Source of the DNA: Octopus vulgaris
Taxonomy: Eukaryota
NCBI GenBank assembly: GCA_951406725.2
Contig: OX597821.1
Span: 78,244,001-78,308,000, forward strand
Reading direction: 5' to 3'
DNA length: 64,000 bases
Shown: positions 60,846 through 62,265 of the stretch, one piece after another
Position numbering within the stretch: position 1 is the stretch's first letter
Layout: each line of letters begins with the position of its first letter
The notes under the pieces: generated by a model
Database searches by the model: none
Told to the model about the DNA's origin: nothing
The model's input: only the letters and a program-made list of their open reading frames with translations
Position numbers and translations under genes: made by a program

Positions 60846-60890
<45 letters not shown>

Positions 60891-60901
60891 TATATAGAAG
60901 G

Positions 60902-60952
60902 AGCTTCTACAGGACTAGAACTGTTTCATTCAAGAGAAATCTTCAGGAAGCT
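60902..60952 (-). ncRNA. Type I hammerhead ribozyme, copy 1
   Basis: AGCUUC-CUGAAGA-uUUCucuuGAAu-GAAA-CAGuucuagucCUG-UA^-GAAGCU. Confidence 0.8.
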
Positions 60953-61125
60953 AGTTAACAAGAATTGTATTGGCATTTATACATTTAGGCAGGTTTAAAG
61001 GGGTGTTGGTGGGGGACTTTTTGGGGGTAGGCATAGCGCATAATATCATACTTGGGGGGGTGGTCAAGGAGTCAGTGTAGGTACGTAGAGTTATCTATGT
61101 GTGTATTTATATGTACATGTGTAAG

Positions 61126-61168
<43 letters not shown>

Positions 61169-61231
61169 ATGTGTGTGTGTGTGTATATATATATATGTAT
61201 GTGTGTATGTGTATATATATGTGTATATATG

Positions 61232-61282
<51 letters not shown>

Positions 61283-61672
61283 AAGTTTATATGTATGTAT
61301 CCGTCTATATAATAGGTAACTGCACGTACATATACTTAATATTTATTATTTATTTTTTGAGTATGCATGTATGAATAACTGCGCGTATATATATTTTACT
61401 ATTTACTTATTTTTTGAGTATGCATGTAAGTATGAATATAAGGAGGCGCGTGTGTGTGTGTGTATGTGTAAGCATAGATATATGTATACTTTTACGCATG
61501 GGTGTACTTATGTGTATATATGGATGCGTGCGTGTGTGTGTGTGTGTATGGGTACGCATGTACATGTGTATGTGCGTGTATGAGTATATGAGTATGTATG
61601 TATGTGTGTGCGTATATTTGTATATGTATGTATGTATATGTATGTGTGTGTATGAATATATATGTATATATG

Positions 61673-61705
<33 letters not shown>

Positions 61706-61929
61706 ATAGATATATATATGCGCGTATATATATGTATGTATGTGGGTGTGTGTATGTGTATAAATGTATGTATGTATGGATGTATGGATGTATGTATGTA
61801 TGTATACGTATGTATATGTATGTGTGTATATGTATGTATGTGTATGTGTGTATATATGTGTATATGTGTGTATATGTGTATATATGTGTGTATGTATGTG
61901 TGTGTGTATATATGTGTATATATATGTGA

Positions 61930-61964
<35 letters not shown>

Positions 61965-61984
61965 TATATTTATTATATAGAAGG

Positions 61985-62035
61985 AGCTTCTACAGGACTA
62001 GAACTGTTTCATTCAAGAGAAATCTTCAGGAAGCT
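61985..62035 (-). ncRNA. Type I hammerhead ribozyme, copy 2
   Basis: Identical 51-mer to 60902-60952, 1083 bp away, within a direct repeat of about 190 bp. Confidence 0.8.
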
Positions 62036-62265
62036 AGTTAACAAGAATTGTATTGGCATTTATACATTTAGGCAGGTTTAAAGGGGTGTTGGTGGGGGAC
62101 TTTTTGGGGGTAGGCATAGCGCAAAAAATCATACTTGGGGGAGTGGTCAAGGAGTCAGTGTTAAATTAGATAGGAGAATAAATAAAAAATAAAAAATAAA
62201 AAATAAAAAATAAAAAATAAAAAATAAAAAATATAAAAAAAATATATAAAAAAATAAAAAAATAA

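Follow-up and report, generated by a model that had tools for sequence, protein, structure and literature searches.

Paired hammerhead motifs at an octopus locus as the probable 3' ends of adjacent copies of a non-coding Penelope-like passenger family

Two identical hammerhead ribozyme motifs lie on the same strand of a 64-kb window of the Octopus vulgaris genome (the whole stretch of DNA analyzed here; all positions count from its first letter). We propose, with a probability of roughly three in four, that they are the 3' ends of two adjacent copies of a high-copy, non-coding passenger of Hydra-clade Penelope-like elements (PLEs), and that the pair arose when a short, 5'-inverted copy inserted in the 3' (TA)n of a longer copy.

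Identical hammerheads in two direct repeats

The direct repeats 60884-61078 and 61967-62161 are spaced by 1083 nt and differ at only three of 194 aligned bases (61041, 61044 and 61059). Each carries a 51-nt motif on the minus strand (60902-60952 and 61985-62035), and the two motifs are identical. Scanned on both strands with a hammerhead descriptor, the window yielded exactly two matches, namely this pair. The motif is composed of a 6-bp stem I, the core CUGAAGA, a stem II made of U·U plus 3 bp, GAAA, a 4-bp stem III with an 8-nt loop and a GUA site; the predicted minus-strand cuts fall after 61991 and 60908. We thus find the CUGANGA core, GAAA, NUH site, three helices and open stem I of a type I hammerhead. 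The original prediction had described tandem identical type I hammerheads in direct repeats of about 190 bp, and had specified the cleavage site, stems and cut positions as they are given here; repeat alignment and descriptor scan bear out this description throughout.

60902..60952, minus strand: type I hammerhead 1, core CUGAAGA at 60946-60940, cut at 60908/60907; Hydra-PLE-like, predicted dimer type
61985..62035, minus strand: type I hammerhead 2, identical to hammerhead 1, cut at 61991/61990

Such matches are rare in shuffled sequence. A relaxed descriptor applied to 40 block shuffles gave a mean of 0.2 matches per window and never two, and the core pattern with at most three mismatches occurs twice in the window against none in 100 shuffles; the two matches, being copies of each other, count as one independent motif. 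Rfam at its gathering threshold yielded no match within the window, ARAGORN no gene, and the exact core pattern was found in none of the viral and none of the metagenome contigs searched.

The repeats terminate copies of a long, microsatellite-rich element

Comparison of the window with itself revealed a third copy of the family (copy C), 48 kb from the pair, and a short stub. Family copies were read at these two loci, both inside the window, as follows.

60848..60883: (TA)n tract bordering copy B1 on its 3' side; likely the target of insertion
60884..61078, minus strand: copy B1, the 3'-terminal 195 bp of the family, 5'-truncated
60884..60907, minus strand: 24-nt tail retained downstream of the cut site, with a terminal hairpin over the cut site
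61076..61078, plus strand: TGT microhomology where B1 and the inverted piece join
61076..61966, plus strand: spacer, an inverted internal fragment of the family body, corresponding approximately to copy C 13185-13965
61931-61966: (TA)n that forms the spacer's outer end; its equivalent lies within the family body
61967..63880, minus strand: copy B2, a long copy made of the 3' repeat (61967-62161) and a microsatellite-rich non-coding body; its 5' end may run past the window
63232..63275: place in B2 where about 470 bp present in copy C and the spacer are deleted, the deletion starting in (TA)n
12191..14150, minus strand: copy C, full body; three small deletions and an altered GAAA disrupt its hammerhead
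11757..11782, minus strand: stub of about 25 nt of the family 3' end beside (TA)n, with a palindrome between it and copy C

The microsatellite-rich, non-coding bodies of B2 and C align colinearly for about 1.9 kb; the upper repeat therefore forms the 3' end of a longer element and is not an LTR. In one block of unique sequence, the two copies differ at 18 of 264 aligned bases. Each of the window's four copies stops at (TA)n, at a distance of 18-20 nt from stem I (or what is left of it), and retains the nucleotides beyond the cut site; 5' truncation is seen in B1 and in the stub. Reading frames over the B2 and C bodies give only simple-repeat translations, with no ORF in the 1.9-2 kb of body seen, and a tblastn search with 150 endonuclease relatives found no match in 60884-64000, the 5' end of B2 lying outside the window.

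The spacer aligns in inverted orientation to copy C 13185-13965. It was first described as an inverted copy of the element's own body, and this holds in that it is inverted family body; its source is not the neighboring B2 as it stands now, which lacks a block of about 470 bp (C 13259-13727) that the spacer contains. Each of the four diagnostic motifs of this block was found a single time in C and a single time in the spacer, and never in B2. In a shared unique block of about 150 nt, we counted one substitution between spacer and B2, five between spacer and C and six between B2 and C. On these sequence comparisons, spacer and B2 are of the same subfamily, with separate histories since.

The region around copy C has further structure. 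Stub, palindrome (two inverted arms of about 50 nt around about 146 TA units) and copy C make up a second stub-inversion-long copy layout at 11757-12191; the palindrome arms have no other occurrence in the window. At the 5' end of copy C lies an 86-bp direct duplication (14146-14230 and 14542-14626), and family-like microsatellite continues to 15165.

Relationship to Hydra-clade PLEs

In the compilation of Craig et al. (2021, PMC8557442), Hydra-clade hammerheads lie near the 3' end, (TA)n targets are given for 26 of 27 Hydra families (File S1), and stem II is closed by U·U in 14 of 26 Hydra-clade rows and helix III is ACAG/CUGU in four of these 26 rows (File S2). The octopus family has much in common with the elements Penelope-5_HM, Hydra-1_Ajap, Hydra-1_Amil and Hydra-1_Obim of the same source: a sense type I motif near the 3' end, the arrangement CUGA(A/U)GA-U ... 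U-GAAA with a short stem II, an ACAG/CUGU helix III with a GUA site, (TA)n targets, and partial tandem or inverted insertions. It differs in loop III, which measures 1-3 nt in the 26 rows and 8 nt with a central palindrome in octopus (PMC8557442). Furthermore, unlike Hydra-clade PLEs, the family has no ORF in the body seen, and that body is largely microsatellite-like. Published Hydra elements are mostly shorter than 3 kb, and the published octopus element, Hydra-1_Obim, has a different hammerhead and 3' end and a short 3' UTR (PMC8557442). Five of five short repeat motifs of the family were absent from the Craig supplement (PMC8557442), in which we found no autonomous element sharing this 3' end.

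An autonomous Hydra-clade PLE is recognized by an ORF with RT and C-terminal GIY-YIG, which the body seen does not contain (the 5' end of B2 is outside the window). Among the features of a non-autonomous element mobilized by PLEs, we find a hammerhead near the 3' end, a fixed 3' terminus, insertion at (TA)n and 5' truncation. With known non-autonomous PLE derivatives (Chlamys such as MRC1, and non-LTR retrozymes; PMC7229834 and bioRxiv 10.64898/2026.07.22.740005) the family shares a non-coding nature, a PLE-type 3' end, a type I hammerhead, high copy number and a mostly dispersed distribution. From its sequence features, the family is likely a non-coding passenger of Hydra-clade PLEs.

The window also contains a trace of a coding element:

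15725..16021, minus strand: remnant of a C-terminal GIY-YIG endonuclease of a Hydra-clade PLE, on the same strand as copy C and 1.6 kb upstream of the recognizable body

This remnant scores 0.96 against GIY-YIG clusters in the Atlas and has 1685 relatives, which carry RT motifs and CxCX5C. Its E and N are flanked by CxxC and CxH, in agreement with the description by Craig et al. (PMC8557442). A word-based protein search gave no match; Pfam missed the remnant and hit GIY-YIG in one of ten relatives. The remnant is truncated at (TA)n, after which comes a tract, first C-rich and then GU/UA-rich, whose polarity matches that of the family body; the remnant is possibly of the partner type. That copy C might be a 3.5-kb 3' UTR of this remnant is a lead only, as 14150-15730 and the body have only simple-repeat words in common and most published Hydra elements fall below 3 kb. 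A frame at 24104-24487, at first taken for a PLE RT, had neither a Pfam nor a tblastn match and is left unassigned.

Could the pair be a retrozyme?

The original prediction held that the locus could release a 1083-nt circle in the manner of an LTR-type retrozyme. The length of the would-be RNA is right (1083 nt: A 463, U 315, C 248, G 57); the rest of the proposal finds no support. LTR retrozymes are described as having type III motifs, PBS, polypurine tract and 4-bp TSDs (PMC4918200). Those of plants (Cervera et al. 2016, PMC4918200) do share with the octopus locus two same-sense hammerheads in direct repeats, placed 0.6-1 kb apart around a non-coding middle; they differ in that their motifs are of type III and their LTRs measure 300-400 bp, whereas the octopus motifs are of type I in repeats of 195 bp and the upstream repeat is not terminal. 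Where a PBS and a polypurine tract would be expected we found neither: the upstream repeat is followed by (AU)n, and no purine run lies before the downstream one. A 4-bp TSD would be unreadable within (TA)n.

The arrangement is also unlike that of non-LTR retrozymes, which are pLTR derivatives in animals and form head-to-tail tandems of 150-450 bp units with a hammerhead each (PMC7229834 and bioRxiv 10.64898/2026.07.22.740005). Tandem Repeats Finder, run with periods up to 500, detected no such array; the octopus unit is at least 2 kb, and its motifs are split by antisense sequence.

A broader hypothesis is that repeat, spacer and repeat form a functional retrozyme, whatever its type, that is transcribed, cut twice, circularized to 1083 nt and re-inserted as a unit. 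Two identical same-sense hammerheads can be predicted to form a nested double hammerhead, and circRNAs arise in coral, mussel and axolotl from tandem type I hammerheads, among them a motif with a U·U stem II (PMC7229834). Retrozyme consensus lengths reach 972 bp in bioRxiv 10.64898/2026.07.22.740005, in which, on the other hand, only one of nine predicted Xenopus dimers cleaved in vitro. The predicted circle folds better than 12 shuffles (z -4.5), a result of little weight given the few shuffles and the clustered (AU)n; at 28% GC, -148.5 kcal/mol and 44% of bases paired, it would be unlike the highly self-paired circles of retrozymes. Above all, B2 continues into at least 1.7 kb of family body and not into another spacer, which rolling-circle copying would not give, and the spacer is antisense to the element. 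Together with the hammerhead type and the lack of priming sequences, this makes a functional retrozyme very improbable here.

Predicted folding and dimer-type cleavage

The octopus motif has, on its own, a predicted probability of about 2% of adopting the active fold. Two motifs cofold as a double hammerhead at -27.0 kcal/mol, compared with 2 x -8.5 kcal/mol for separate molecules, and the loop variant described below reaches -29.4 kcal/mol. Helix III is predicted to be far more stable as a duplex (-12.8 kcal/mol) than as a hairpin (-1.4 kcal/mol); in the cofold, 12 of 16 helix III positions are paired, and 14 of 16 in the natural variant. Weak, self-complementary helix III stabilized by dimer formation is what characterizes dimer-type PLE hammerheads, here by prediction only, and the weak helix III fits those described in PMC4209133 and PMC6765202. 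Cutting is accordingly predicted only as a dimer formed through the self-complementary helix III.

It had been a concern that the U·U stem II variant is inactive. The literature provides an answer by analogy: U·U is the commonest form in Hydra-clade PLEs, and monomers of an axolotl motif with a U·U stem II were 22% cleaved within one hour, its dimers more so (PMC7229834).

In longer transcripts, the active folds compete with others. For a 1301-nt precursor, they lie 6.0 kcal/mol (dimer) and 7.0 kcal/mol (monomers) above the free fold, and the cis double hammerhead is predicted to be nested. Double cleavage of a read-through RNA would be chemically possible in such models. For a transcript starting at 63700 (a 2831-nt precursor), 764 of 895 spacer bases are predicted to pair with the B2 body. 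Read-through RNA starting in B2 is thus predicted to lock up about 760 spacer bases in a hairpin and would then be an ADAR substrate, not a freely available precursor of circles. Energies for long repeat RNAs are crude, and these predictions ignore co-transcriptional folding and proteins. Separately, we observed that a terminal hairpin (60884-60910 and 61967-61993, minus strand) covers the cut site and competes with stem I in all minimum-energy folds; according to these models, it could keep the ribozyme off in the retrotransposition template.

A proposed origin by internally primed insertion

The junctions have a distinctive geometry: a sense 3' piece, an inverted internal piece with about 800 nt skipped, microhomology on the inside and (TA)n on the outside. 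We propose that a PLE endonuclease nicked a (TA)n target, which would be the (TA)n at the 3' end of B2; B2 itself may be older or belong to the same event. One DNA end would have primed reverse transcription at the RNA 3' end, 24 nt beyond an uncut ribozyme site, and the 195 nt copied would be B1. The other end, made of (TA)n, would have paired with a (UA)n tract inside the RNA, from which synthesis ran the opposite way for about 890 nt and produced the spacer. Both cDNAs would then have joined at TGT, with the loss of the 800 nt in between.

A by-product of Penelope-style integration had been offered initially as the fallback reading, and it is this reading that the colinear B2/C body, the inverted spacer, the TGT microhomology and the (TA)n ends support. 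In PMC11167929, a lizard PLE protein nicks and extends both strands, its template in vitro is uncut RNA, and ribozyme cleavage needs protein; the retained 24-nt tail fits uncut RNA as template. Partial tandems with inverted pieces are given as typical of PLEs (Craig et al. 2021, PMC8557442), which tend to insert into or beside earlier copies (PMC6765202).

The geometry is that of twin priming as given for L1 (PMC2837659). Twin-primed, 5'-inverted L1 copies have in common with the octopus locus a sense 3' piece, an inverted internal piece, an internal deletion and a short microhomology at the inner junction. They differ in target and priming sites, T-rich/poly(A) for L1 as opposed to (TA)n and internal (UA)n here, and in the enzyme, here likely that of a PLE; TSDs cannot be read inside (TA)n, so this L1 feature has no readable counterpart. 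An internally primed inversion between two direct 3' ends would, in a PLE, be an extrapolation from L1: our literature search on twin priming, inversion and Penelope listed nothing on a PLE mechanism. The published inverted PLE copy is 5'-truncated, includes the 3' end and lies 5' of the unit, unlike the internal inverted piece observed here.

We may also hypothesize that the layout arose at the DNA level, B2 being locally duplicated and inverted by template switching among (TA)n tracts before losing 470 bp. Spacer and B2 share five substitutions relative to C, the outer end of the spacer and the B2 deletion start in equivalent (TA)n tracts, and (TA)n, being its own reverse complement, together with the 3-nt microhomology would lend itself to such an exchange. 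Yet B1 ends exactly at the family 3' end, like the other three copies, and no non-element flank is duplicated; a separate later deletion is needed; and a similar stub-inversion-long copy layout exists at 11757-12191, such layouts being typical of PLE insertion. We regard a DNA-level origin as unlikely. That the duplication and inversion are an assembly artefact of a microsatellite-rich region, from a fold-back read or a mis-join of family copies, is more improbable still. This idea draws on the trouble that complex PLE insertions cause in assemblies (PMC8557442) and on the read data presented below: none of the listed runs holds more than 13 of 19 sampled words, and the T of B1 at 61041 is an A in more than 99.9% of the depth in all four runs aligned. 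An insertion that is private or polymorphic would account for the missing words just as well, and a fold-back of B2 cannot supply the block of about 470 bp that B2 lacks. Several indels separate spacer and B2, the repeats show three base differences, the junction microhomology is clean, and the window contains no N. We therefore retain insertion of a 5'-inverted passenger copy as the preferred explanation.

Abundance and diversity of the family

The 240-nt segment 60886-61125 is present in 21 of the 24 sequencing runs listed. Half or more of its 19 words were found in 20 of these, which come from 12 studies and bear seven organism labels; the best word share is 0.68. Distinct contigs on this segment number 2007 and 1660 in two DNA runs, which we read as a large, diverse and dispersed family; we take depth neither as a measure of copy number nor, where it drops on approach to 61077, as proof of 5' truncation. 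Among the loose ends listed (19 of 76), all four just behind 61077-61078 continue into ordinary B2/C sequence. No cover was seen over 61078-61125 in two of the runs guessed to be RNA, and among the pieces listed from four runs (32 of 3741) none spans this whole 240-nt segment; we do not take this as evidence.

Among the DNA variants listed at 3% or more within the motif (a listing that reached 61041 and may be incomplete), there are only two: position N7 (60942; 17% and 33% of depth), which gives CUGAUGA, and loop III (60919; 8% and 15%), which lengthens the central palindrome from four to six bases. At 60939, 60952, 60954 and 60959, groups of 3-12 contigs diverge from the reference, either within the hammerhead or just upstream of it; these loose ends suggest further repeat families sharing only the hammerhead 3' end.

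A literature search combining hammerhead, Penelope, octopus or cephalopod, and ADAR retrieved no description of the family. As Octopus vulgaris has 31 recently active PLE families (PMC13282606), the family may already be part of a repeat collection such as Repbase, Dfam or the Zenodo library of that study.

Signs of RNA editing in family transcripts

None of the 24 runs is recorded as RNA, and seven were guessed to be RNA, among them run X10. Over 60886-61058, 16 of the 18 places listed at which X10 varies and which are not common to the DNA runs are plus-strand T-to-C changes, that is, A-to-G on the hammerhead strand. The same changes make up about 0.2% of depth or less in two DNA runs. They come from few contigs in X10, with up to 17 changes in each. 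The putatively edited sites show no 5' G (0 of 16, against 5 of 31), a depletion in the direction expected of ADAR that is not significant (p 0.15). The changes include A15.1, the last A of GAAA (60924), as well as positions in stem II (60929), stem I (60952) and loop III (60916). A15.1 matters for hammerhead activity. It is likely that hammerhead-sense family RNA is hyper-edited by ADAR in double-stranded form; a genomic copy of an edited RNA would look alike. Editing of such a repeat is to be expected, since octopus shows extreme hyper-editing and, in lizard, Penelope is heavily hyper-edited (PMC5625713).

Among the contigs listed for the guessed-RNA runs, three bridge the cut site (record 9 of run X14 and records 1 and 2 of X10). 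These may be uncut, antisense or religated RNA, or DNA, and derive from the family but not necessarily from this locus. Because the junction sequence equals the genomic repeat, plain back-junction reads would be uninformative. A loose end at 61010 in X14 carries letters that we take to resemble a template-switch adapter, which suggests that X14 is cDNA containing plus-strand family RNA. Another loose end, at 60904 in X10, belongs to a single contig with T-to-C changes, in which inverted family body (equivalent to 62310-62340) follows on 4 nt beyond the cut site: another inverted copy.

Other features of the window

Two copies of a small cysteine-rich coding piece, PAN/apple-like by eye, are 86% identical (1249-1727 and 50571-51050); one homolog, from Octopus sinensis, is 81% identical over 47% of the query. 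An old segmental duplication in pieces links 3631-9986 and 56063-58573 at 75-82% identity. Weak tblastn matches to PLE endonuclease relatives occur at 9754-9822 and 58437-58547. A LINE with AP-endonuclease and RT frames separated by one stop lies at 17164-20289 on the plus strand, and further decayed LINE pieces are seen at 4500-7800 and 35200-43400.

Conclusions

The locus is ordinary mobile-element debris and a reason for caution: a pair of hammerheads in the same sense, about 1 kb from each other, can pass for an LTR retrozyme. Judging by its junction, internal priming at (UA)n tracts may give rise to PLE inversions. As a long shot, we may picture an octopus-wide PLE passenger of very high copy number whose (UA)n-rich body primes its own inversions, whose hammerhead core is edited by ADAR in hairpins so that the ribozyme is switched off, and whose side-by-side pairs, working as cis double hammerheads, release kilobase microsatellite RNAs or circles; if true, a ribozyme would here be gated in nature by RNA editing. 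The family itself appears to be very abundant across several related species, and is in this respect more interesting than the hammerhead pair through which it was found.
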